A stretch of 64,000 bases of DNA from Candidatus Heimdallarchaeum aukensis (GTDB taxonomy: Archaea > Asgardarchaeota > Heimdallarchaeia > Heimdallarchaeales > Heimdallarchaeaceae), in assembly GCA_021513695.1 (NCBI GenBank), contig CP084166.1, positions 256,001 to 320,000 of the forward strand, read 5' to 3'. Below are positions 1,238 through 63,684 of the stretch, piece after piece (positions within the stretch are counted from its first letter, which is position 1; every line of letters begins with the position of its first letter). The translations under genes were made by a program, and so were the position numbers. Under the pieces are notes generated by a model. The model was not told the origin of the DNA and did no database searches. It was given only the letters and a program-made list of their open reading frames with translations.

Positions 1238-1519
1238 TTGATAAGAATGGATTTAGTAGTTAAGGATCCTGAAAAAATAGTAGAAATCGCAAAAGTACTC
1301 TCAAGTACAACAAGATTCAAAATAATTCACTTATTGAAAGACAAAGAAATGACAATTAGTGATCTCGCAGATGAAATTCGTCAAACACAAGCAAATACAT
1401 CAGCTCAAATAAAAATGATAGAAAATGTAGGGTTGATGGAAAATAAGTATGAGCCTGGAGATCATGGAGTGAAAAAACTTTGTAAAACAAAGGTCAAAAG
1501 AATAATAATTGAGATATAG
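1238..1519 (+). CDS. ArsR/SmtB-family winged-helix transcriptional regulator
   Basis: 93 aa. RFKIIHLLKDKEMTISDLADEIRQTQANTSAQIKMIENVGLME fits the ArsR HTH pattern (R..IL..L...E..v.eL.......S.hL..L...Gl). Confidence 0.6.
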   Translation: MIRMDLVVKDPEKIVEIAKVLSSTTRFKIIHLLKDKEMTISDLADEIRQTQANTSAQIKMIENVGLMENKYEPGDHGVKKLCKTKVKRIIIEI

Positions 1520-1779
1520 ATATCATAAGTAGAAATATTGGAAATTTCTTAATTATTTCTTTTCTAAATATATTACTTTTTCAAACATATTTGTAAGTGG
1601 TAATAAAACAAAAAGATTACTCTCTTCAGGTAAATTGTCGATAGAAGTGTAGAGTATAAAAGGCGAGTCTTCAGATTCTCTAATCATAATCTTAAAGAAA
1701 GGATTCAGAGAAACAATTTTTTTAATGTCTTCAATAGATATGGTCATGATTTACTTTTTTACGTAAAGTTTTTCACACT

Positions 1780-1990
1780 CTGTCTTGCAAGAGAGAAAAC
1801 TAAAGGAAGTTTAATCTCTTGAACTCAACCAAGCCATACAATGCCATGAAGGGGTTGAGACAGACATCATACACGAATCGTGGGAATCATAAAGAAGAAA
1901 AGAACTAAAAACTCTTTTCTTCACTCCACGAGAGACAAAAAAGAAAGAATTACTCCTATAATAGAGAAGGAGTTAAGTTCTTTTTTGTCT
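1780..1990 (-). ncRNA. candidate TnpB guide RNA (omegaRNA/reRNA) and right-end region of the IS200/IS605-type element
   Basis: GC-rich, non-coding block immediately 3' of the tnpB stop and continuous with it on the minus strand. In IS200/IS605 elements the omegaRNA overlaps the tnpB 3' end and extends into the right end. No fold was computed. Confidence 0.35.
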
Positions 1991-3443
1991 ACTGGGGCTG
2001 CAACCAATGGCTGAGCCCTCGGCAAACAGTGAAATGGGAAGAACTGAACCTTTGACCAGTGAGGTAATCAGTGATAGTTGTTCCTCGAGGACGAAAAAGA
2101 GCACCAAGGAACTTACGAGCGATATTCATTGCTCCTGTGAGGTCAGAGTGGAAAGTGTAATTGCAAGAGGGGCAATGGACTAAACCTCTAACAGGACGGA
2201 CAACTTTCCTTCCACAACGAGTACAGTGAGAGGATGTCCCTCTTTCCTCTACGGTTAATATTCGATGAGGGTCAAAACCTCTTAATATCAATGCTCGACG
2301 GAGAAGAGTAAGAACTAGAGAAAAGTTCCACTGATGAAGTTTCCTGCGAAACTTACGCGCACTGTTCCCTTTTCCTTTATCTTTTCTCACATTTTTGGGG
2401 TAACCTACGACGACGAAAAGGTCATACCTTCGAGCATAGGTCTCTATCGTCTGCACAACCTCACTTATAAATTGGTGAATATAGGACAGTTTAACGTTTC
2501 TATATCTTCTTCGGAGAAGACTAAGAAAACGATAAACTTGGTGTTTTTTACCCGACTGGTCGTTTAAAGCTGCTTTCCTCTGAAGACGGGAAAGTTTGAG
2601 TTTATATCTATGATTGATTTTATTCCATTGTTTGGTATACCAGAATTTTATTTCTTCACTTGTTAATTTCTTTTTAGGGGTTAGTAACACTCCTGCAGCA
2701 GGAATGTTTATCCCTAGATCTATTCCCAGCACAGCTGGAGGAAGAGAAGAAGAACTTTTTTTTTTAGGAGGATAAAAAGAAGGAGGAGGAAGAACTCTTA
2801 GTTGGAAATACACCCACCACTCATGTGTAGAACGTTTATATCTTAGTTCTAAACTTTTTATTCGTCCTTTCTTTAATTCCTTCTGGTGGAAAGTGCTCAT
2901 CTCTAAAGGCAACCATAACTTCTGATGATATGGGGTATTTCTTTTCCACGTATCTAACGAGTCTCTTATCCCCACCCACCAACGAGCGAGAGTGTTATTC
3001 TTCTCTTTAGGTAAATGGACGAGAACGAACCTCTTTGCATTAATTAGTTGTCTTCTTGCTCTCTTTATTGGAGGACGAGTATTATTAGGTCTATACCCTT
3101 GTTCATATAATTGTACGGCTATATCTCTACACTCTTGAAATTCATTGTGGGAACAATAAGGGAACATTTTCTTCAGATCGTGAGGGACATTCTTTCTTCT
3201 CTCTTCTTCTTTAACTTTTGAAGTAGTTAGCGTCAACTCATCTAGTTTTCCTCTATGCACTCTTATTTTCCCTTTTTTAGTTTTAGTACATATTTTTCTT
3301 CTGTTGTGGTGTATAATTCTCACATACTTTTCTATTATCCTCGTATCTCTTCCCGTTATTCTCCTTAACCTTTCCTTCTTCCTCGTCGTCAATACCTCCT
3401 TCTTTATTCTCACTTTCAAGGTTTTGACGACGTCCTTCACCAT
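1989..3443 (-). CDS. tnpB: TnpB (IS200/IS605 OrfB family, RNA-guided nuclease-like protein)
   Basis: 484 aa. RuvC-I-like LGIDLGINIPAAG. C-terminal zinc finger CTRCGRK...HCPSCNYTFHSDLTGAMNIARK with the RuvC-III-like D. N-terminus KTLKVRIKK...RKKERL resembles the OrfB N-terminal domain. By eye, the expected RuvC-II glutamate position (FVVVGYPKNV) appears to be a glycine. Gene is markedly GC-richer and more Arg-rich than its neighbours. Confidence 0.8.
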   Translation of the reverse strand: MVKDVVKTLKVRIKKEVLTTRKKERLRRITGRDTRIIEKYVRIIHHNRRKICTKTKKGKIRVHRGKLDELTLTTSKVKEEERRKNVPHDLKKMFPYCSHNEFQECRDIAVQLYEQGYRPNNTRPPIKRARRQLINAKRFVLVHLPKEKNNTLARWWVGIRDSLDTWKRNTPYHQKLWLPLEMSTFHQKELKKGRIKSLELRYKRSTHEWWVYFQLRVLPPPSFYPPKKKSSSSLPPAVLGIDLGINIPAAGVLLTPKKKLTSEEIKFWYTKQWNKINHRYKLKLSRLQRKAALNDQSGKKHQVYRFLSLLRRRYRNVKLSYIHQFISEVVQTIETYARRYDLFVVVGYPKNVRKDKGKGNSARKFRRKLHQWNFSLVLTLLRRALILRGFDPHRILTVEERGTSSHCTRCGRKVVRPVRGLVHCPSCNYTFHSDLTGAMNIARKFLGALFRPRGTTITDYLTGQRFSSSHFTVCRGLSHWLQPQ

Positions 3444-3581
3444 CTTTCTCTTTTCTCCTTCTTTCCTCTTTTTTTTGTTTCTTCTTCTCTTTTTTATTCT
3501 ACTTTTTTCCCTATAAAAACCCCTCTCCTTCCTCTCCTCTCCTTTCTTTTTTCTCTCTACATTTTCCTCAATAATTGTAAA

Positions 3582-4082
3582 TTACGTAAAAAATAGACGC
3601 ATGCTAGAAGTTAATTTCTTTAGAGATTCAAGAGGTATAGCTGAAAGATTATTTAGAATTGTAAACTCTAAATTCATTTTTGTTAATATTTGACTAAAAG
3701 CAGTTATCCTCTTCCTAGCATTAGACAGATGATCTCGTATGGTTGAAGGGCTATTTTGAGTAAACTTTGCTATTTCTTCTGATTTGAAATCTAAAATATC
3801 GTGAAGATAAAAACAAAGAAATTGTTTGTCAGATAAAACGGAAGAAACAGGATTAATATCAGAAAAATAACCAAGGTTTACTAATTTAGAAACAGTTTCT
3901 AAAAAATCTAATTCTTGAACTTCTTCTTTAATACTATCTTTCCTTTTAAAAGAAAAAAGAATAACTAAGGAAGCTCTTCTAATTTCCATGTTAATGAAGA
4001 GTTTTAAATGTTTAATACTTTCAGGAATTTTGGGTAAAAATTCTTTATGATCTTCATTTTTTACTAGAATCGAAAATTTCAT
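3582..4082 (-). CDS. hypothetical protein with a C-terminal HTH resembling sigma-70 region 4 / LuxR type
   Basis: 166 aa. FLCFYLHDILDFKSEEIAKFTQNSPSTIRDHLSNARKRI resembles a region-4-type HTH. Weak. Confidence 0.3.
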   Translation of the reverse strand: MKFSILVKNEDHKEFLPKIPESIKHLKLFINMEIRRASLVILFSFKRKDSIKEEVQELDFLETVSKLVNLGYFSDINPVSSVLSDKQFLCFYLHDILDFKSEEIAKFTQNSPSTIRDHLSNARKRITAFSQILTKMNLEFTILNNLSAIPLESLKKLTSSMRLFFT

Positions 4083-5678: not shown

Positions 5679-6830
5679 GGAGAGTGTGAGTATAGTGTAA
5701 ATGTATTTTGCAGATATGGGTTTACACTACACTCTCCATACTAGTAGATTTTTTTTCATATTAAAATATTTTTTGTTTATCTCACGACTGTTTACTCTAT
5801 CCACGTTGGTAACAAATAAATAGAAAGTGGGTTACGAGGGTAAATGATGTATTATGAACAAACCCAAACGTAACCTAGAGAGACTAAGAAAGATTGTGGT
5901 TAAAAAAGCTTTGGAAGGAGAGAAGATAAAAGAGGTAGCTCACAGGTTTATGGTGAGTAGGAAGTTTGTTTACAAGTGGTTGAAGAGGTTCAGAGAGAAC
6001 CCTGAAGGAGAATGGTGGAAGAATAGATCATCTAGACCTAAAACTATACACAGGAAAGTGGATGAGGAGTTAAGAGAGAAGATAAGGGAGTTAAGAGTAA
6101 AGCAAGGAATGAACGTGGAGAAGATAGTTTATCTGTTGAAGAAAGAAGGAAGAGCATTATCGCGAAACACAGTAGTTAAAGTAATAGGAGAGTTAGGTCT
6201 TCCTCTGTGGAGTAATAGAAAAAAGAGAAACAGAACTCAATACAAGAGTTTTGAACGCTCTAGCCCTAACGAACTCTGGCAGATAGATGTGAAAGGACCA
6301 TTCTGGATAGAAGAACAAGGACAACACCTTTATCTCATAACCTTGATAGACGACCACTCACGATTCTGTCTGGGAGCTAAACTCCACCCTTTTGCACCGA
6401 AAAAAGAGCAGATAATAAGTTTGTTAGAAGGAGCAATAGAAAAATATGGACACCCCGAGTCTATCCTCACGGACAATGGAGCACTCTTCTACTCCGTTAG
6501 AGGAGGAACAAGTACCTTCTCCCGTTGGTGTCAAACAGAAGGAATAAAACACATCAGATCTAGAGTTTTTCACCCCGAAACATGCGGAAAAGTAGAAAGA
6601 CTACATGGAACCATCATCCGTGAGATGAAAAGACTAGGACTAACCTACTGTAACTCCGACCTCTCCTTCTACCGCTCTTACTACAATTTTAGCCGTCCTC
6701 ACCAGTCTCTTAACCTCCTTACCCCTGGAGAAAAATTTATGAATCACCCCTACGTTTCTCTAGTGCCCAAAAGTGTAACCCAGGTCTATTGAGTGAACAT
6801 GTTTATCTCACGACCTTTAAAATATTTAAA
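5679..6830 (+). mobile_element. IS481-like insertion sequence (approximate extent)
   Basis: Transposase gene flanked by the 14-bp direct repeat GTTTATCTCACGAC at 5775..5788 and 6801..6814. A 17-bp-stem imperfect hairpin at 5679..5737 lies upstream. Clean terminal inverted repeats could not be identified by eye. Confidence 0.45.
5854..6792 (+). CDS. IS481-like DDE transposase/integrase (rve core with N-terminal HTH)
   Basis: 312 aa. N-terminal HTH (KEVAHRFMVSRKFVYKWLKRF). DDE core: WQIDVKGPF (D), LITLIDDHSRF (D), ILTDNGALF, HPETCGKVERLHGT (E). Codon usage GC-richer than the host. Confidence 0.8.
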   Translation: MNKPKRNLERLRKIVVKKALEGEKIKEVAHRFMVSRKFVYKWLKRFRENPEGEWWKNRSSRPKTIHRKVDEELREKIRELRVKQGMNVEKIVYLLKKEGRALSRNTVVKVIGELGLPLWSNRKKRNRTQYKSFERSSPNELWQIDVKGPFWIEEQGQHLYLITLIDDHSRFCLGAKLHPFAPKKEQIISLLEGAIEKYGHPESILTDNGALFYSVRGGTSTFSRWCQTEGIKHIRSRVFHPETCGKVERLHGTIIREMKRLGLTYCNSDLSFYRSYYNFSRPHQSLNLLTPGEKFMNHPYVSLVPKSVTQVY

Positions 6831-31473: not shown

Positions 31474-34400
31474 ATGACGTCATCTGTCATGTCAACAACT
31501 GTCCTAAAATCATTATTGTTAATTCTAGTTCTTGCTCCAACAATAGTAATGATAAATAATAATGAAAATAATTTATTTAACCTACAAAATGAAGAAAATA
31601 GTAAGAATGAGATTTATTCATTAAACAACAGTAATGAGAATTTTATTGACATATCGAATAAAAAAAATAATGATAATATTCTAGAAAACGACGTAAGAGC
31701 TAGTAATAAGGATAGAATACTTTTATCTTCTCTTCCAGATAGCGCTAATTGGGTAGAAAAAAATGAGTCATTTACTGGTAGATTTTATCAATCATTAAGT
31801 GATTTAGATGAAGATAAAATCCCAGAGCTTATAACTCTTTCTGATACTAATGGGCAAATTCAAGATATTGGAGAACCTGGTTATACAAAATTTTTGGAAT
31901 ATAACGAAACAACAGGAACTTTTTCAAATGAACTATTGTCTATTAGTACAGCGGGCCCTACAATTTATTATCCTGTTGAAGCTTATGCTGATAATGCTGT
32001 ATATTTGCTCGAAAAGACTTTTTCAGCAGATAATTCTGATCATATTTTTGTTTGGAAAAAATGGAATGGAACTGATATTATCAACGTTTCTTCAAATATC
32101 TATATTAAAAATGATGGTTTATATGATTATGACAGTTATGATTTTGATTTAGATGGAAATGTAGATTTAGTTTGTAATTGGGGTTATTATTCAGGTGTAT
32201 GGACAAGATTAGAGTTAGAGAATGGGCTTTTTTCTTCAACTGATTATTCATTTTATAACGGGGGCAGATCTATTTTTGTAGAAGATTTGGATAACGATGG
32301 TAATCCAAATGTAGCTGTACTATATGCTGTTGATAAAATAAATATTTATAATTATAATCCGAGTATAAATGATTTCCAATTTCAACAACAAATTACTGGT
32401 ATTAGTTCATTAAAAGTAATGTATCCTTGGGATTATGACCATAATGGCTATACTGATATTATTGTTGTTTCTCATGAGACTGGAGTTGTTATTTATTCAT
32501 ATGAATGGGATAGTTCTTCTTCTTCTTATGTTCAAAAACTATCATATACCATTCCTGAAGCGACAGATAGTCAATGGACTGGTGTTCCTAGGTATTGTGA
32601 TCTTCTTGGAGATGGAGAAATTACAATGGTTTTTGATATTGTCCGTAATTCACGTTCTGAAATAGGTTTTATCACTTATGAAAATAATAACTTTGCTTTT
32701 AATTCTATTTATAATCATACAGATAGTTCGAAAATTTATTTTACATCTGCTCAAATTGATAATGATCCAGAAAGAGAAATTCTAGTAAATTATGAAAAGA
32801 ATGTAGATGAATTCTATACGAAAATATTAGATTTGGAAGCGTTTAATGAGGGTCGGTATTTTGAAACTTTTGACTCTGATGTTTTTCTTTCTAATCCAAA
32901 TATGAAATATTCTTGGAGCAGGAGTAAAGATAATGTAGTCGTATCTAATGGATCTTTAAAAATTTTAGCTGATGAAACAAATGATGATTATGCAAAACTA
33001 CAACTTTTTTCTGGAACTAAATCAATACAAATCAGAGCTAGAGTAACTTTAAATGGTGACAAATTCAACTATCCTGAAATAATAATTAAAAATGACAATA
33101 ATGAAATAGTAGCCAATTTGACATTTAGTCAAATAGATGGATGGCAAACACCACAGTTAAGCTATTTAAGTGATTACAGAGGACCAACAATAAAAGGCGT
33201 TTGGTATGATTTAATGATCAACTTTGGTTTTAATTCTCTTACATTTTATACAAAGAAGCCTTATCAAGATTATTGGCGCTATATTGCCAGATTTAATATT
33301 AATGGAAATTTAAACGAATTAATTTTTTATCAACGCAATAATGCAGAAATAGAAATGGATTCTATTGACATTTTTTATAGTTATGACAGTGATAATGATG
33401 GGTTAAGTGATGATAGCGAAACTCTAATCTATCAAACTGATCCTCTAGATCCTGATACTGATGACGATGCTTATACAGATGGAGATGAAATAGAAACAGG
33501 AACAGACCCACTTGATCCTTTAAGTTATCCCAAATCTTACTCCTCAATTTTTTCAGAAAATTTTGAAACAGGAATATTAGATGAAAATAATTGGAGTTTG
33601 TATTCTTCCAATAATGTTGGAGAATGGACTATTGTTAAATATCAAGGAAACTATTGGGTACAGCATCTTTATTCAGGTAGTGTGATAGGACATACTGATC
33701 CTAACATACTTGTTTCATCTCCTCTAAATTTTGGTGACAATTTTACTATTTCATATGTAGTTAGACCTCTCACTTATCAATACGATGAGGTTGGAATTTT
33801 CTTTCTCTGTCCTAATGGTACAGGTTTCAGACTAGGAACTTTTAATGTATATCATGATTTTATAAGAATAGGTGCTTCTAGCTATTATGATTTTGCTTTC
33901 ACAGCTGATTTAGATAAGACTTATTATATGAAAGTTACTTATGTAGATGATACAGTTACCGTTTTTTGTAATGACTCTCAAATTGCACAGGTAAATAATA
34001 TAGACCTCCCATCTGAAGGATCATTAGGATTAAGGAGTAGAGGATATTATGGTCAAGCTTCTCATGCTCTTTATGACAATATTACAATACATAGTACAGC
34101 TTTGTTAAATGAGACCTTTGATTTTGATATCTTTGACACTTATTCAAATTGGATAAGAGATACTACTTCTTTTACTGTTGATACAACCAATAGTTGGTTA
34201 CATAAAGGTACAACAGGTAGTTATAATCATATTGCAAAATATAATAAAACAATACAATTTCCATTCACTATAAATGTAAGAGGAAGATTGGTAAGTGGAG
34301 GATATGATTATACATTTCCTGGATTATATCTCTGTTATCCAAATGGTTCGTCAATGTCAATTGTTTTTAATGGAGGAGGTACAGGAGGAGACTATTGGAC

Positions 34401-37400
34401 ATTTTGGGGTCGCAGAGATTCGGACTATGGTCCTCAAGCAGAAAATGTATGGTGGAATATTAAAGTTCTTTTGGATAATGGAACTCAATTTCTCTACTCC
34501 AAAAGTGACACTGATAGTAGTTGGATTTTAATTGCTAAAACAAATCTTTTATTTGAAAGTAATCATATTTATGTAGGTTTTAGTAGTCCTTGGGACGCTG
34601 TTTTTGACATAGATTATATTGAGATAATTTCGAGGAGTACAAATCCAATTGATACTGATTCTGATGGATTACTAGATGAGGATGAGATAAATATTTACGG
34701 TACTAACCCTTCTAATTCTGATACTGATTCTGATGGTATGCCTGACGGTTGGGAGGTTACTAACAGTTTGGACCCCTTAACTGATGATTCTTCTTTAGAC
34801 GCTGATTCTGATGGTTTAACTAATTTAGAAGAATACTCTTCTGGTACTGACCCCAATAATAGTGATTCTGATAATGATGGTTTAACTGATGGTTCAGAGG
34901 TTAATACTTACAATACTGACCCCAATGATTCTGATACTGATTCTGATGGTATGCCTGACGGTTGGGAAGTAAACTACAGTTTGGACCCCTTAACTGATGA
35001 TTCTTCTTTAGACGCTGATTCTGACAGTTTAACTAATTTAGAAGAGTATCAAAATAACACTGACCCCAATAATAGTGATTCTGATAATGATGGTTTAACT
35101 GATGGTTCAGAGGTTAATACTTACAATACTGACCCCAATAATTCTGATACTGATTCTGATGGTATGCCTGATGGTTGGGAAGTAAACTACAGTTTGGACC
35201 CCTTAACTGATGATTCTTCTTTAGACCCCGATTCTGACAGTTTAACTAATTTAGAAGAGTATCAAAATAACACTGACCCCAATAATAGTGATTCTGATAA
35301 TGATGATTTAACTGATGGTTCAGAGGTTAATACTTACAATACTGACCCCAATAATTCTGATACTGATTCTGATGGTATGCCTGATGGTTGGGAAGTAAAC
35401 TACAGTTTGGACCCCTTAACTGATGATTCTTCTTTAGACGCTGATTCTGATGGTTTAACTAATTTAGAAGAATACTCTTCTGGTACTAACCCTTCTAATT
35501 CTGATACTGATTCTGATGGTATGCCTGATGGTTGGGAAGTAAACTACAGTTTGGACCCCTTAACTGATGATTCTTCTTTAGACCCCGATTCTGACAGTTT
35601 AACTAATTTAGAAGAGTATCAAAATAACACTGACCCCAATAATAGTGATTCTGATAATGATGATTTAACTGATGGTTCAGAGGTTAATACTTACAATACT
35701 GACCCCAATAATTCTGATACTGATTCTGATGGTATGCCTGATGGTTGGGAAGTAAACTACAGTTTGGACCCCTTAACTGATGATTCTTCTTTAGACGCTG
35801 ATTCTGACAGTTTAACTAATTTAGAAGAATACTCTTCTGGTACTAACCCTTCTAATTCTGATACTGATTCTGATGGTATGCCTGATGGTTGGGAGGTTAC
35901 TAACAGTTTGGACCCCTTAACTGATGATTCTTCTTTAGACGCTGATTCTGATGGTTTAACTAATTTAGAAGAATACTCTTCTGGTACTGACCCCAATAAT
36001 AGTGATTCTGATTCTGATGGTATGCCTGACGGTTGGGAAGTAAACTACAGTTTGGACCCCTTAACTGATGATTCTTCTTTAGACGCTGATTCTGATGGTT
36101 TAACTAATTTAGAAGAGTATCAAAATAACACTGACCCCAATAATAGTGATTCTGATAATGATGGTTTAACTGATGGTTCAGAGGTTAATACTTACAATAC
36201 TGACCCCAATGATTCTGATACTGATTCTGATGGTATGCCTGACGGTTGGGAAGTAAACTACAGTTTGGACCCCTTAACTGATGATTCTTCTTTAGACGCT
36301 GATTCTGACAGTTTAACTAATTTAGAAGAGTATCAAAATAACACTGACCCCAATAATTCTGATTCTGATAATGATGGTTTAACTGATGGTTCAGAGGTTA
36401 ATACTTACGGTACTGACCCTAATAATTCTGATTCTGATAATGATGGTTTAACTGATGGTCAAGAGGTTAATACTTACGGTACTGACCCTAATAATTCTGA
36501 TACTGATGGAGACAGTATGCCTGATGATTGGGAAGCAAATAATAATTTAGATCCTTTAATTGATGATTCTTCTTTTGATGCTGATTCTGACGGTTTAACA
36601 AATTTAGAAGAATACTCTTCTGGTACTGACCCCAATAATAGTGATTCTGATAATGATGGTTTAACTGATGGTTCAGAGGTTAATACTTACTCTACAGATC
36701 CATTAGATTCTGACACCGACTCTGATGGTATGCTTGATGGTTGGGAGGTTACTAACAGTTTGGACCCCTTAACTGATGATTCTTCTTTAGACGCTGATTC
36801 TGACAGTTTAACTAATTTAGAAGAGTATCAAAATAACACTGACCCCAATAATAGTGATTCTGATAATGATGGTTTAACTGATGGTTCAGAGGTTAATACT
36901 TACAATACTGACCCCAATGATTCTGATTCTGATAATGATGGTATGCCTGACGGTTGGGAGGTTACTAACAGTTTGGACCCCTTAACTGATGATTCTTCTT
37001 TAGACGCTGATTCTGATGGTTTAACTAATTTAGAAGAATATTCTTCTGGTACTGGCCCTACTAATTCTGACACTGATTCTGATGGTATGCCTGACGGTTG
37101 GGAGGTTACTAACAGTTTGGACCCCTTAACTGATGATTCTTCTTTAGACACTGATTCTGATGGTTTAACTAATTTAGAAGAATACTCTTCTGGTACTGAC
37201 CCCAATAATAGTGATTCTGATTCTGATGGTATGCCTGACGGTTGGGAGGTTACTAACAGTTTGGACCCCTTAACTGATGATTCTTCTTTAGACGCTGATT
37301 CTGACAGTTTAACTAATTTAGAAGAATACTCTTCTGGTACTGACCCTAATGATTCTGACACTGATTCCGATGGCATACCTGATGGTTCAGAGGTTAATAA

Positions 37401-39414
37401 TTACTCCACTGATCCTTCTAATAGTGACACTGATTTTGATGGTTTAACTGATGGTTCAGAGGTTCTCTATGGTACTGATCCTTCTAATAATGACACCGAT
37501 TCTGATGGTTTAACTGATGGTTCAGAGGTTAATACTTACTCTACTGACCCTTTGGCTTCTGACACTGATTTTGATGGTATACCTGATGGTTGGGAAGTTA
37601 CTAACGGTTTAGACCCGTTATCTGATGATTCTTCTTTCGACCCCGATAATGACGGTTTAACTAATTTAGAAGAATACTCTTCTGGTACTGACCCCAATGA
37701 TTCTGACACTGATTCCGATGGCATACCTGACGGTTGGGAGGTTACTAACAGTTTAGACCCATTATCTGATGATTCTTCTTTCGACCCCGATAATGACGGT
37801 TTAACTAATTTAGAAGAATACTCTTCTGGTACTGACCCTAATGATAGTGACACTGATTTTGATGGTTTAACTGATGGTTCAGAGGTTAATATTTACTCCA
37901 CTGACCCTAATAATAGTGACACCGATTCTGATGATATGCCTGATGGGTGGGAAGTCAGCAACAATTTGAACCCATTGAAAGACGATTCTGCTTGGGATAT
38001 TGATTCTGATGGTTTAACTAATTTAGAAGAATACACTTCTGGTACTGACCCTAATGATTCTGACACTGACTCTGATGGTATGTCTGACGGTTGGGAAGTA
38101 AACTACAGTTTGAATCCGTTATCCGATGATTCCTCTTTGGATGCTGATTCTGATGGTTTAACTAATTTAGAAGAATACTCTTCTGGTACTGACCCTAATG
38201 ATTCTGACACTGATAATGACGGTTTAACAGATTATGAAGAAATAGCGATTTATGGTACAAAACCAAATAAAAACGACACCGATGGAGATGGTGTTCCTGA
38301 TGGTGATGAAATACAAAATGGTTCAAACCCAAACAAACCTTCTTACTTACAGTTTCTGATATTATATTCAATAAAAAGGTATACTTTTGAACTGATATTT
38401 GGAATAATTGCAATAATTGGTATCATTGTAGCTACAATATTCTTAAAGAAAAAGAGAAAAACCCAAAAAATCTTAGCATCAAAAAATAGATCAAGACAAA
38501 GTACAATAAAAAGAGCAAAGAAAAAGAATTTATTGTTATCTTTCAGTGATAATTTGGAGATTATAGAACAGGAATGGAAACAGATTAATGATGAGAAATA
38601 TTCTGATAAAACATTGTTTAATACTGATTATTCTAATAAAATAAAAGAAACTTTTGCTAAATTAATAGAGACTACAATAGAATTTAACTATTACTTTACC
38701 AAAGGGACAAAATATTTGTCAAATGTTGAATGGTTAAATATAAAGAAAAGAATAAACAATTTACTTGACAAATTTAGAGACTTTTTACTACAAGAATTAG
38801 AGAAAGTTGATTTTACTAAAAAATTCTCGATAATAAAAAATGAAATAGAAAAGGTAGTTGTTGAAAATTTGCGAAACTTTGACGAAAAAGAGTTATTAAA
38901 ACCATTTAATATATTAAATACTCTAGCTACTATAAAAAATGAAATAGACAGGACTAAAGAGTTCATCGACGAATTTACTTTTTCTAAATTGACCTCTTAC
39001 TGGGGTAATTTGTCTAATCAAATTACAAATATTATTGTTGAAATAGAAAGACAAAAAGAGGAAACAGAAAGAATTATACAAGAAACAAAGGAAATAATGG
39101 AAAACGAGAAATTGAATCAAGAACGATTAGAAATTCTAAACAAAGTAGTTTCTATCTATACACAAATTTCATTATCTAAACTTTCTTCGTTGCTTAAGTT
39201 ACCTTCGATATCTGCTCTAACTTATTGGTTATCAACTCAAAATTTAGATATTGATTATATAATTGTCGACGATGAAATAATCTTTGAAAAACAAAAAGGA
39301 GAAAAAAATGAAAATGATGTTGATTATGATAACGAAGTAACTAATGCGATAGACTCTCTATTAAAACAATTTGATGAATGGGCAAAAAAGGATGAAGGAA
39401 AAAAAATAGATTAA
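31474..39414 (+). CDS. giant surface adhesin-like protein (2646 aa): signal/anchor, FG-GAP-like propeller repeats, LamG-like jelly-roll domains, about 50 thrombospondin-type-3-like Ca-binding repeats, TM helix, 330-aa cytoplasmic coiled-coil tail
   Basis: N-terminal hydrophobic LLLILVLAPTIVMI. DxDxDG loops DFDLDGNVDLV, DLDNDGNPNVAV, DYDHNGYTDIIVV, DLLGDGEITMVF (FG-GAP-like). Repeating DTDSDGMPDGWEV / DADSDGLTNLEEY / DSDNDGLTDGSEV units match DxDxDGxxDxxE. TM ELIFGIIAIIGIIVATIF followed by KKKRK and a charged helical tail. Confidence 0.75.
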   Translation: MTSSVMSTTVLKSLLLILVLAPTIVMINNNENNLFNLQNEENSKNEIYSLNNSNENFIDISNKKNNDNILENDVRASNKDRILLSSLPDSANWVEKNESFTGRFYQSLSDLDEDKIPELITLSDTNGQIQDIGEPGYTKFLEYNETTGTFSNELLSISTAGPTIYYPVEAYADNAVYLLEKTFSADNSDHIFVWKKWNGTDIINVSSNIYIKNDGLYDYDSYDFDLDGNVDLVCNWGYYSGVWTRLELENGLFSSTDYSFYNGGRSIFVEDLDNDGNPNVAVLYAVDKINIYNYNPSINDFQFQQQITGISSLKVMYPWDYDHNGYTDIIVVSHETGVVIYSYEWDSSSSSYVQKLSYTIPEATDSQWTGVPRYCDLLGDGEITMVFDIVRNSRSEIGFITYENNNFAFNSIYNHTDSSKIYFTSAQIDNDPEREILVNYEKNVDEFYTKILDLEAFNEGRYFETFDSDVFLSNPNMKYSWSRSKDNVVVSNGSLKILADETNDDYAKLQLFSGTKSIQIRARVTLNGDKFNYPEIIIKNDNNEIVANLTFSQIDGWQTPQLSYLSDYRGPTIKGVWYDLMINFGFNSLTFYTKKPYQDYWRYIARFNINGNLNELIFYQRNNAEIEMDSIDIFYSYDSDNDGLSDDSETLIYQTDPLDPDTDDDAYTDGDEIETGTDPLDPLSYPKSYSSIFSENFETGILDENNWSLYSSNNVGEWTIVKYQGNYWVQHLYSGSVIGHTDPNILVSSPLNFGDNFTISYVVRPLTYQYDEVGIFFLCPNGTGFRLGTFNVYHDFIRIGASSYYDFAFTADLDKTYYMKVTYVDDTVTVFCNDSQIAQVNNIDLPSEGSLGLRSRGYYGQASHALYDNITIHSTALLNETFDFDIFDTYSNWIRDTTSFTVDTTNSWLHKGTTGSYNHIAKYNKTIQFPFTINVRGRLVSGGYDYTFPGLYLCYPNGSSMSIVFNGGGTGGDYWTFWGRRDSDYGPQAENVWWNIKVLLDNGTQFLYSKSDTDSSWILIAKTNLLFESNHIYVGFSSPWDAVFDIDYIEIISRSTNPIDTDSDGLLDEDEINIYGTNPSNSDTDSDGMPDGWEVTNSLDPLTDDSSLDADSDGLTNLEEYSSGTDPNNSDSDNDGLTDGSEVNTYNTDPNDSDTDSDGMPDGWEVNYSLDPLTDDSSLDADSDSLTNLEEYQNNTDPNNSDSDNDGLTDGSEVNTYNTDPNNSDTDSDGMPDGWEVNYSLDPLTDDSSLDPDSDSLTNLEEYQNNTDPNNSDSDNDDLTDGSEVNTYNTDPNNSDTDSDGMPDGWEVNYSLDPLTDDSSLDADSDGLTNLEEYSSGTNPSNSDTDSDGMPDGWEVNYSLDPLTDDSSLDPDSDSLTNLEEYQNNTDPNNSDSDNDDLTDGSEVNTYNTDPNNSDTDSDGMPDGWEVNYSLDPLTDDSSLDADSDSLTNLEEYSSGTNPSNSDTDSDGMPDGWEVTNSLDPLTDDSSLDADSDGLTNLEEYSSGTDPNNSDSDSDGMPDGWEVNYSLDPLTDDSSLDADSDGLTNLEEYQNNTDPNNSDSDNDGLTDGSEVNTYNTDPNDSDTDSDGMPDGWEVNYSLDPLTDDSSLDADSDSLTNLEEYQNNTDPNNSDSDNDGLTDGSEVNTYGTDPNNSDSDNDGLTDGQEVNTYGTDPNNSDTDGDSMPDDWEANNNLDPLIDDSSFDADSDGLTNLEEYSSGTDPNNSDSDNDGLTDGSEVNTYSTDPLDSDTDSDGMLDGWEVTNSLDPLTDDSSLDADSDSLTNLEEYQNNTDPNNSDSDNDGLTDGSEVNTYNTDPNDSDSDNDGMPDGWEVTNSLDPLTDDSSLDADSDGLTNLEEYSSGTGPTNSDTDSDGMPDGWEVTNSLDPLTDDSSLDTDSDGLTNLEEYSSGTDPNNSDSDSDGMPDGWEVTNSLDPLTDDSSLDADSDSLTNLEEYSSGTDPNDSDTDSDGIPDGSEVNNYSTDPSNSDTDFDGLTDGSEVLYGTDPSNNDTDSDGLTDGSEVNTYSTDPLASDTDFDGIPDGWEVTNGLDPLSDDSSFDPDNDGLTNLEEYSSGTDPNDSDTDSDGIPDGWEVTNSLDPLSDDSSFDPDNDGLTNLEEYSSGTDPNDSDTDFDGLTDGSEVNIYSTDPNNSDTDSDDMPDGWEVSNNLNPLKDDSAWDIDSDGLTNLEEYTSGTDPNDSDTDSDGMSDGWEVNYSLNPLSDDSSLDADSDGLTNLEEYSSGTDPNDSDTDNDGLTDYEEIAIYGTKPNKNDTDGDGVPDGDEIQNGSNPNKPSYLQFLILYSIKRYTFELIFGIIAIIGIIVATIFLKKKRKTQKILASKNRSRQSTIKRAKKKNLLLSFSDNLEIIEQEWKQINDEKYSDKTLFNTDYSNKIKETFAKLIETTIEFNYYFTKGTKYLSNVEWLNIKKRINNLLDKFRDFLLQELEKVDFTKKFSIIKNEIEKVVVENLRNFDEKELLKPFNILNTLATIKNEIDRTKEFIDEFTFSKLTSYWGNLSNQITNIIVEIERQKEETERIIQETKEIMENEKLNQERLEILNKVVSIYTQISLSKLSSLLKLPSISALTYWLSTQNLDIDYIIVDDEIIFEKQKGEKNENDVDYDNEVTNAIDSLLKQFDEWAKKDEGKKID
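34640..38330 (+). repeat. intragenic near-identical tandem nucleotide repeat array (213-nt and 144-nt unit variants) encoding the TSP3-like repeats
   Basis: Unit starts at 34933, 35146 and 35359 are exactly 213 nt apart with long perfectly identical stretches. The shorter 144-nt variants lack the DSDNDGLTDGSEV half-unit. The array extends about 3.7 kb. Confidence 0.85.
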
Positions 39415-62760: not shown

Positions 62761-62844
62761 TATATAAAGACCACAAGAAAACTGTGCCATGCTTTCTGTA
62801 TATCTAAAACACAACCTTCTTAAAATTTACGTAAAAAATTAATT

Positions 62845-63684
62845 ATGGAAAATGAAGAAACTCTAATAAATGAGCTGAAAAGTGGTTTCGGAACTATAGG
62901 GGTTACTTCTCTTGTAGCTTTTATTTTTAATCTTGCTTTTCTAATTTTTCAGCTAAGCTATTTAAGTAATTATTCACATAATAATTTATCATATAGTAAC
63001 TATTATTTAATATATATTGGCGGTAGTAGTATTTCTTCATTGTTGTTTACTCTGATTTACTTTAGTTTTTTGTACTTAAGCAGAAAGATAGATGAAATAG
63101 AAAAAAGCAAAGAAAACACTATATTTAGAATATCAACAACTATTGCAATTTTGATAATATTCTTTAATATTGGATTCTTTTTAGCTCAATTCTTAGTTGT
63201 AAATGCTGATCAATATTCTGATATTTTTAGTATATCTTACATTATTTTGCAGATATGCTTCATTTTCGTTTATATCTTCTTTGCTCTTTCAATAAGTAAA
63301 ATGAATAGTAAAATGGAAGTTGGAGTAATTATTTGGCCAATTGTAATATATGCAACTATTAACTCAATCGGAGCAATATTTAGGCTAATAATTCAAACTC
63401 TTATTATACTACAACTCTCTTCTTCTGCTTTATTCACCAGCATACTATATTCTTTCTTTAAAAGTATTGATCTAGTTGTTGAATTAATATTTATTATAAC
63501 CATGTTCTTTGTAGCAAACAATGCTCAAATTTCTTTATTACATCAAGTACCACGATATACTTCTTATGCATATTCAGGACCTGTATATAAATCCAAACAA
63601 TCAACTAATTTTTGTCCTTTTTGTGGAACAGAAAATTCTCCTGATTCAAAATTTTGTATAAACTGTGGAAAAAGGATAGATTAG
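62845..63684 (+). CDS. polytopic membrane protein with a C-terminal zinc-ribbon
   Basis: 279 aa, about 7 hydrophobic helices. C-terminal CPFCGTENSPDSKFCINCGKRID zinc ribbon (CxxC...CxxC). Confidence 0.45.
   Translation: MENEETLINELKSGFGTIGVTSLVAFIFNLAFLIFQLSYLSNYSHNNLSYSNYYLIYIGGSSISSLLFTLIYFSFLYLSRKIDEIEKSKENTIFRISTTIAILIIFFNIGFFLAQFLVVNADQYSDIFSISYIILQICFIFVYIFFALSISKMNSKMEVGVIIWPIVIYATINSIGAIFRLIIQTLIILQLSSSALFTSILYSFFKSIDLVVELIFIITMFFVANNAQISLLHQVPRYTSYAYSGPVYKSKQSTNFCPFCGTENSPDSKFCINCGKRID

Follow-up and report, generated by a model that had tools for sequence, protein, structure and literature searches.

In some TnpB proteins the glutamate in motif RuvC-II has given way to glycine and the loss is compensated by a glutamate on strand beta-5, as in RuvX; several of these “RIIr” branches are specific to archaea (Altae-Tran et al. 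2023, PMC10691335). TnpB with the alternative glutamate about 45 residues away has also been called “TnpB2” (Jiang et al. 2023, PMC10530073), and TnpB2 and Fanzor are both defined by an E to G/P change in RuvC-II together with an alternative glutamate about 45–50 residues downstream (PMC10530073; PMC11832414). TnpB of Thermoplasma volcanium (TvTnpB), which has such a relocated site, cleaves DNA in dependence on the target-adjacent motif (TAM) NTGAC and has no collateral activity (PMC10530073). A connection between relocation of the glutamate and absence of trans-cleavage has been published. The structure of Fanzor2 has the triad D324/E467/D501, with the glutamate moved by 50 residues (PMC11832414), and ApmFanzor2 with the E467A substitution is dead (PMC10530073). 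As regards mobility, TnpB elements associated with Y1 transposases or serine recombinases have asymmetric ends, inverted repeats having been described only for DDE-associated TnpBs and their solo derivatives (PMC10691335). Here we describe a tnpB element in a 64,000-nt stretch of the Asgard archaeon Candidatus Heimdallarchaeum aukensis (contig CP084166.1, positions 256,001 to 320,000 of the forward strand; hereafter “the window”, to which all coordinates refer). It is probably a non-autonomous insertion sequence (IS), inserted at CATG in a helix-turn-helix (HTH) gene and carrying a TnpB of the TnpB2/RIIr type which is predicted to be an active nuclease and to operate with an omegaRNA.

For the most part the element is an ordinary IS whose product is already in GenBank as a “transposase”, and the class of TnpBs with a relocated glutamate has been published. 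It stands apart from the characterised TnpB2/RIIr examples in that its ends are inverted repeats, its target is CATG and its host is an Asgard archaeon, and in that no partner was found in the copies and relatives examined.

A divergent TnpB with an apparently relocated catalytic glutamate

The tnpB gene (1989..3443, minus strand) codes for a protein of 484 residues (GenBank UJG41058.1, “transposase” of Ca. Heimdallarchaeum aukensis). It matches the TNB domain of Cas12f1-like proteins (Pfam PF07282) with 38.2 bits, the cut-off being 26.3. An AlphaFold2 (AF2) model with a mean predicted local distance difference test (pLDDT) score of 80, for which a family alignment of 25 sequences (35–90% identity) served as input, was matched by Foldseek over the whole chain to AsCas12f (1e-14), ISFba1 TnpB (3e-12), ISDra2 TnpB (1e-11) and the mimivirus protein ApmFanzor2 (2.7e-10), with OsCas12f also among the matches (range 1e-14 to 3e-10) and each match spanning about 460–490 columns. 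As modelled, the protein has the fold of TnpB and Cas12f, that of WED-REC-RuvC proteins into which a zinc finger is inserted, and we regard it as a divergent but genuine TnpB. It shares its domain order (WED/REC, RuvC, zinc finger) with the canonical TnpB of ISDra2 (PDB 8H1J/8EXA), although sequence similarity between the two is very low (profile E = 0.09). The family is small, since its profile, searched against 1.84 billion proteins, retrieved just 96 cluster representatives at E ≤ 1e-30; its named relatives are all Heimdall- and Thorarchaeota.

The initial annotation of the locus, made by eye, had judged the aspartates of RuvC-I and RuvC-III and the zinc finger to be intact and had seen no glutamate at the canonical RuvC-II position. 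Both observations hold in the 25-sequence alignment, where D242, G347, E400 (in xxExWTS), C407, C410, C424, C427 and D434 are invariant. The RuvC-I aspartate D242 (GIDLG; 2718..2720, minus strand, as are all sites that follow) is D in 234/234 relatives covering the column. The canonical RuvC-II site, where beta-4 ends (VVVGYPK; AF2 strand 341–348), is taken by G347 (2403..2405), and a profile search against the PDB aligned “iqmEDLtnir” of Cas12f with “fvvvGYpknir”, placing G347 exactly at the canonical glutamate. The relocated glutamate would be E400 (2244..2246), found at the end of beta-5 (TVEERGTS), directly after strand 395–399 of the model and just before the zinc finger of the TNB domain (CxxC...CxxC, C407/C410/C424/C427; 2163..2225), which is supported by PF07282 as well as by the alignments. 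The RuvC-III aspartate D434 (HSDLTGAMNIA; 2142..2144), placed by alignment, opens helix 433–450. G347 and E400 are separated by 53 residues, and E400 and D434 by 34.

We gathered 284 relatives, aligned all of them to the family profile and counted the residue patterns at the four positions. D-G-E-D was present in 197 and D-E-P-D in 6, one partial sequence had E-A-D, and none carried glutamate at both the beta-4 and the beta-5 position. By their sequence, the D-E-P-D and E-A-D relatives represent the canonical state, with glutamate on beta-4 and proline or alanine at beta-5. With its invariant G347, the protein departs from canonical TnpB1, in which the RuvC-II glutamate is on beta-4 (hhhhEDLn), and it has both sequence marks of TnpB2/RIIr, glycine at the canonical site and a conserved alternative glutamate on beta-5, about 50 residues downstream as in TvTnpB (PMC10530073, PMC10691335). 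The alignments thus place it in this published class, in which the catalytic glutamate has moved from beta-4 to beta-5 (here, E400). A shifted catalytic residue was one of two possibilities raised by the initial annotation, and it gains support from the invariance of E400 and its perfect covariation with G347 across relatives. E400 would complete the active site with D242 and D434 after replacement of the beta-4 glutamate by G347, and the protein is predicted to have retained nuclease activity.

The other possibility was that G347 marks an inactivated nuclease, in which case the protein would have been domesticated as an RNA-guided DNA-binding protein or regulator of the TldR type. TldRs have lost their catalytic residues without compensation, are often truncated at the C-terminus, and reside, immobile, beside the genes that they regulate. 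The window protein resembles them as a TnpB homologue with no glutamate at the canonical RuvC-II position, and inactivated, exapted TnpBs do exist (PMC10691335). Nevertheless, this explanation appears very improbable: the full D-E-D set is kept, D242, E400 and D434 being invariant and G347 and E400 coupled across relatives, and Fanzor2 and TvTnpB, with the same arrangement of residues, are active nucleases. Moreover, the protein is full-length, with its zinc finger and RuvC-III, unlike the truncated TldRs, and the gene belongs to a mobile element of which one genome has at least 14 copies with unrelated flanks, whereas exapted TnpBs have a fixed neighbourhood beside the regulated gene. More generally, when a TnpB seems to lack its RuvC-II glutamate, inactivation should not be concluded before the next strand has been checked for a relocated one.

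With Fanzor2 (ApmFz2, PDB 9B0L) the protein has in common the relocated glutamate, the 34-residue spacing between glutamate and aspartate (E467/D501 versus E400/D434) and the fold of the whole protein; published residue numbers were used for this comparison, as a shortened query against the PDB had returned zinc-ribbon noise alone. Cas12f structures match it better than does Fanzor2, and its host, unlike those of Fanzor, is archaeal. Pro-Fanzors are defined by a DPG motif in RuvC-I and by linkage to an IS607 TnpA (PMC10711439). Fanzors and the pro-Fanzors, which are cyanobacterial TnpBs (Yoon et al. 2023, PMC10711439), have DPG where the window TnpB has IDLG, its RuvC-I reading G-I-D-L-G with a nearly invariant L243, and no IS607 serine recombinase was seen within the element or adjoining the relatives that were examined; of the features defining that group, the alternative glutamate alone is shared.

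Boundaries of the element and its insertion into a host gene

The whole element occupies 1745..3603 on the minus strand and measures 1,859 bp including the CATG at both ends. The list of open reading frames (ORFs) contains no second gene within it, in keeping with its initial description as a TnpB-only element, which had been placed at 1780..3600, that is, slightly too narrowly. The ends were set by comparison with copies in Ca. H. endolithica, whose complete genome (CP084167) yielded 14 related loci with 80–92% nucleotide identity to the window element. Pairwise identity begins at window positions 3603–3607 and ends at 1743–1746, with unrelated flanks on either side, and the homology edges in all 14 copies fall within 1–3 nt of positions 3603 and 1745. 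Several H. aukensis paralogues belong to the 90%-identity cluster that includes the exact window TnpB, and no second copy was found in the window by blastn or tblastn. Two of the H. endolithica copies (L013:3001-3714 and L014:3002-3663) are truncated at the 5′ end and retain only the last ~150 codons along with the omegaRNA region and the right end, indicating that solo omegaRNA-bearing remnants coexist with intact copies; frameshifts or stops were seen in copies L007, L009, L011 and L012, which belong to subfamily (group) B of the two described below.

The element has split a gene for a sigma-70 region-4-like HTH protein at (C)ATG. The 5′ part of this gene is located at 3604..4082 (minus strand), the called ORF (3582..4082) taking its final 7 codons from the element, and the HTH protein annotated in H. 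aukensis (P0121) is the truncated one. The 3′ part (1553..1747, minus strand) continues the reading frame of the 5′ part after removal of the element and one CATG. When fused, the two yield a protein of 224 residues with 75% identity, at 100% coverage, to an uninterrupted orthologue of 223 residues (P0122), the contig of which is syntenic with the window and has the same ArsR gene as a neighbour. The empty site at the orthologous locus (L015) contains a single TATG at the junction, as opposed to CATG at both ends of the filled site; one xATG versus two CATG would be equally compatible with duplication of 4 bp, with a crossover of 2 bp and with a CATG brought in by the element. In both halves of the host gene the reading frame is still open and has stayed in register, indicating that the insertion in the window is evolutionarily young.

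Between the left end and tnpB there is a purine-rich leader (3444..3581, minus strand) which, as read from the sequence, presumably contains an archaeal promoter and the tnpB 5′ untranslated region. It has a TTTATA box at about 3511–3516 and GGAGG-like motifs, and varies in length among the other copies. The leader is unusually rich in A and G, with a GC skew down to −0.65 on the plus strand. A scan with sigma-70 promoter and terminator models was uninformative, the host being an archaeon.

Inverted-repeat ends, target site and mobility

The left end of the element (CATGCGTCTATTTTTTACGTAA; 3582..3603, minus strand), which is conserved in other copies, starts with CATG, which may be a target or TAM-like tetranucleotide. 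The right end (TTACGTAAAAAAGTAAATCATG; 1745..1766, minus strand) matches the reverse complement of the left end, forming a pair of terminal inverted repeats (TIRs): 17/22 positions agree, a value equalled by 2/200,000 random 22-mers from the window. In group A, the ends are composed of CATG, a 6-nt spacer and TTTTTTACGTAA, while those of group B have the motif CATGNTTTACTTTTTGCG and are distinct yet mutually matching (left, CATGCTTTACTTTTTGCGTAATTTTGCGAAC; right, as reverse complement, CATGATTTACTTTTTGCGAAGTTTGTCGAAC). A branch with 43% identity (L016, L020) has another pair starting with CATG (left, CATGGTTGTTTTTCCCCACTTTT; right, as reverse complement, CATGAGTTATTTTCCCCACTTTT). As the matching pairs differ between subfamilies and branches, the ends appear to co-evolve as inverted repeats. 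In these three sub-branches the repeats are 22–30 bp long and equally distant from the terminal CATG; CATG/TIR ends were not found in branches with 35–38% identity. The end tetranucleotides deviate in 5/16 copies.

The base preceding the left CATG is a purine in 12/12 group-A-type sites and C in 6/6 group-B sites, and is never T. At the right end T always precedes the CATG, and the first base past that end has no mirror-image bias. This count, covering the window copy, L001-L012, L016, L024, L025, L103 and L104, was made post hoc and on small numbers. Such a one-sided bias may fit a five-base TAM which would let the nuclease ignore an occupied site, and we offer it as a lead only.

The left-only bias (purine in all 12 A-type sites, C in all 6 of group B, T at the right) is also what would be expected of an IS605-type target or TAM. 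It is conceivable, if rather unlikely, that the element is a classical IS1341-type derivative of the IS200/IS605 group, inserted 3′ of CATG without duplication by a Y1 (HUH) TnpA encoded elsewhere. Its sole gene is that for TnpB, its right end is about 245 nt past the stop codon, and a specific 4–5-nt sequence abuts its left end, all of which would agree with this assignment. However, its ends are inverted repeats equally spaced from CATG, whereas published Y1 elements are asymmetric (PMC10691335); no convincing subterminal hairpins can be read in them, and no Y1 gene adjoins any family member examined. The IS200/IS605 pattern of asymmetric ends with subterminal hairpins and no TIRs is therefore not that of the window element. 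Among described systems, TvTnpB, with the TAM NTGAC, is part of an IS605 element that also encodes a Y1 TnpA, while the window element has no TnpA, inverted-repeat ends and a CATG target; the two have in common an archaeal host, a mobile element and an omegaRNA at its 3′ end, which is predicted in our case. ISDra2, in turn, differs in its asymmetric hairpin ends, its Y1 TnpA and its glutamate on beta-4.

Similar ends are found in the TnpBs associated with DDE transposases and in the solo elements derived from them (Altae-Tran et al. 2023), which likewise have TIRs around tnpB and a right end less than 250 bp from the stop codon. For solo DDE-type TnpBs, mobilisation in trans is presumed, as it is for the window element: the ends suggest that its mobiliser is an enzyme binding double-strand ends and acting in trans, and a transposase supplied in this way would move the element by recognising its 22–30-bp TIRs. 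A DDE partner with matching ends was not found, the TIRs of an IS481 element in the window being unrelated; that IS481 copy was accordingly rejected as the mobiliser (its ends read TGTTYACTC). No second ORF is present in about 20 bounded copies, and no transposase adjoins three relatives (P0029, P0041, P0088) or occurs in 13 metagenome loci. The longer relatives contain no fused transposase domains, their N-termini being MazE/AbrB-like or HTH alone, and neither the left-end nor the right-end sequence had a match in a scan of viral contigs. The N-terminal MazE/AbrB-like or MarR/HTH fusions to the TnpB core in P0130 and P0140 resemble published archaeal MazE-TnpB systems with rearranged sites.

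We also considered that the element could represent a distinct kind of TnpB transposon, bounded by TIRs, targeting CATG, equipped with a nuclease with a Fanzor-like relocated glutamate, moved by a double-stranded DNA transposase not yet linked to TnpB, and sparing occupied sites by means of a fifth TAM base. Taken as a whole, this combination seems to us quite unlikely. If true, it would provide an archaeal counterpart, in the archaeal lineage nearest to eukaryotes, of the eukaryotic cut-and-paste transposons carrying Fanzor; some Fanzor elements are likewise bounded by TIRs, with target-site duplications. In its modest form, the question raised by the TIR ends is that of the mobiliser, and of the role of TnpB outside IS200/IS605 and IS607 elements.

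One additional TIR-like site in the window (62827..62847, minus strand; CATAATTAATTTTTTACGTAA) was discarded. It overlaps the start codon of ORF 62845..63684, has a spacer of 5 rather than 6 nt and no further homology, and the motif count is within chance (12/100 shuffles equal), so that it is probably a chance occurrence in an AT-rich genome.

A predicted omegaRNA and its guide

Conservation among the copies spans the 3′ end of tnpB and continues to the last base of the element, where it ceases, position 1744 onward being the first non-conserved base in all copies. The 316-nt segment 2060..1745 folds with −93.6 kcal/mol, compared with −68.3 ± 5.0 in shuffled sequences (z = −5.08), and RNAalifold applied to a 15-copy alignment yielded 72 consensus pairs in 9 helices, with 98.9% of the cells paired. 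In the same alignment, 7 pairs exhibit compensatory double changes, versus 0–4 when the partners were slid by 1–3 columns, and the covariation score is 0.131 versus 0.024–0.057 in the slid controls. Apical loops differ in length among copies, and the stems are retained. The 3′-most ~280 nt thus has the look of an omegaRNA scaffold, which we predict to be about 283 nt long (1745..2027, minus strand), to begin inside the 3′ end of tnpB, its 5′ end being uncertain, and to include the right TIR.

An omegaRNA in the 3′ flank had been proposed initially, and the conservation up to the right end, the fold and the compensatory changes all favour such an RNA, with its scaffold reaching to 1745 and its predicted guide lying outside the element, and outside the coordinates first proposed, at 1744 and below. 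Covariance models did not add to this: no Rfam omegaRNA family was matched, the whole window giving 0 matches at gathering thresholds, and the E-value mode applied to 1500..3800 giving chance-level matches alone, with no curated omegaRNA family among them. A tRNA scan found none. As expected for a TnpB element, the guide template would be the flank into which transcription continues beyond the scaffold (ACCATATCTATTGAAGACAT; 1725..1744, minus strand). The resulting guide, which would start with ACCATATCTATTGAAG..., is unique within the window. An omegaRNA that overlaps the 3′ end of the gene, stops at the right end and takes its guide from the flank, as predicted here, is also characteristic of ISDra2.

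Combined with the active site described above, these features suggest the following scheme. The last ~280 nt would be transcribed from within the 3′ end of tnpB as a structured omegaRNA scaffold, and transcription would continue into the flank to give the guide. The predicted TAM is CATG, possibly with a fifth base, that is, purine-CATG in the window subfamily. By analogy with characterised TnpB systems, the ribonucleoprotein may cut the re-joined empty site after excision of the element, and recombination with a sister copy could then restore it, leading to retention or homing.

Several points weigh against this interpretation. The match of the protein to the NCBIfam model NF040570 (guided_TnpB), with E = 9e-25, reaches only 87.7 bits and stays under the cut-off of 100. 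Most of the double changes in the RNA split just two subfamilies and would therefore represent few independent events. TIRs are not a feature of IS200/IS605 elements, and the homing model, derived from excision by Y1 TnpA, may therefore not transfer directly; nor was a partner transposase found in any copy or beside any relative examined. Finally, the right end itself finishes in CATG, beside the flank matching the guide, so that a four-base TAM could not tell an occupied site from an empty one. We still consider a non-autonomous IS with a probably active TnpB2/RIIr-type nuclease the best explanation, and provide exact ends and a predicted TAM, guide and omegaRNA model for a compact 484-residue Asgard nuclease family which, by analogy with its characterised relatives, is presumably collateral-free.

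Nucleotide composition and history of the family

The tnpB gene stood out at once as rich in G+C (GC) and in arginine codons, together with its 3′ flank, and was taken as a recent horizontal acquisition. For the gene, the compositional anomaly is real: the ORF has 39.7% GC versus 29.3% in the window, which is the maximum of all 1,455-bp windows, its GC content at third codon positions (GC3) is 0.351 versus 0.202 ± 0.030 in 30 other long ORFs of the window (z = 4.9), and arginine makes up 11.5% of TnpB, as compared with 1–5% in the products of other window ORFs. The 3′ flank (1780..1988) is modestly enriched, with 35.9% GC.

If the element had arrived recently from a GC-richer donor, its composition would reflect foreign origin and not function. 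The GC and GC3 values of the gene agree with such a history, as does the distribution of GC content among relatives: the H. endolithica copies and the 43%-identical relative (host ~33% GC) also have 37–40% GC, as found in Heimdall hosts with about 30% GC, while relatives in 41–48%-GC contigs of Thorarchaeota type match their hosts; an IS481 copy 2 kb away is GC-rich too. Yet at least 14 copies reside in a single H. endolithica genome, the two Heimdallarchaeum subfamilies differ by about 18% in sequence, with differences all along, the ends included, and several group-B copies are frameshifted or 5′-truncated, all of which argues that the family is no newcomer in Heimdallarchaeum. Furthermore, GC3 is barely lower in the older group-B copies (0.29–0.30), the high arginine content and the structured RNA account for part of the GC excess, and no donor lineage has been identified. 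We therefore view a recent foreign origin as possible but doubtful. “Recently acquired” applies to the insertion in the window; for the family, which has been a multi-copy resident of Heimdallarchaeum in the long term, it is unproven.

Thor-type relatives and other features of the window

In a Thor-type branch of the family, with 33–36%-identical TnpBs of ~550–700 residues that keep the D-G-E-D pattern, tnpB is paired with a divergently transcribed gene for a protein of 1,400–1,650 residues located about 215–275 bp upstream. This pair was seen in at least 13 independent contigs (L019, L022, L026, L028, L030, L031, L032, L033, L037, L049, L100, L101 and L102). Across sub-branches the giant proteins share only 24–35% identity, and the genes around the pair vary from contig to contig, indicating that the pair is a conserved unit. 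No Pfam, NCBIfam or PDB sequence match was obtained for the giant protein. An AF2 model of a 992-residue member (pLDDT 73) gave weak matches to RecA/RAD51/KaiC-like ATPases, and the consensus, as read by eye, contains a D...ExK-like motif (GKVDxIL...VLEIKTR). The pair may be a TnpB system that has been exapted, or else a large transposon; in the main text of the TnpB census of 2023 (PMC10691335) we found no description of such a module.

The window also harbors a complete IS481-family element (5789..6799), with a transposase ORF at 5854..6792 (NF033577, 224.3 bits). At its inverted ends the sequence reads TGTTTACTCTA and, after reverse complementation, TGTTCACTCAA, and a 15-bp direct repeat (TGTTTATCTCACGAC) borders it at 5774–5788 and 6800–6814. 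It has 41.5% GC and a GC3 of 0.42. The supplements of the Heimdallarchaeum paper gave no match to the transposase and IS-family terms looked for. One IS481 end includes GTTCACTCA, a motif placed by the 2023 TnpB census downstream of the hypervariable region in Asgard Cas1-TnpB loci; judging by this sequence match, the motif in those loci may be an IS481-type end.

The second GC-rich stretch of the window (34.7–38.4 kb) is due to ORF 31474..39414 (plus strand), which codes for a protein of 2,646 residues consisting mostly of Asp-rich DxDxDG repeats (thrombospondin type-3-like, calcium-binding-like) and ending in a C-terminal membrane anchor.

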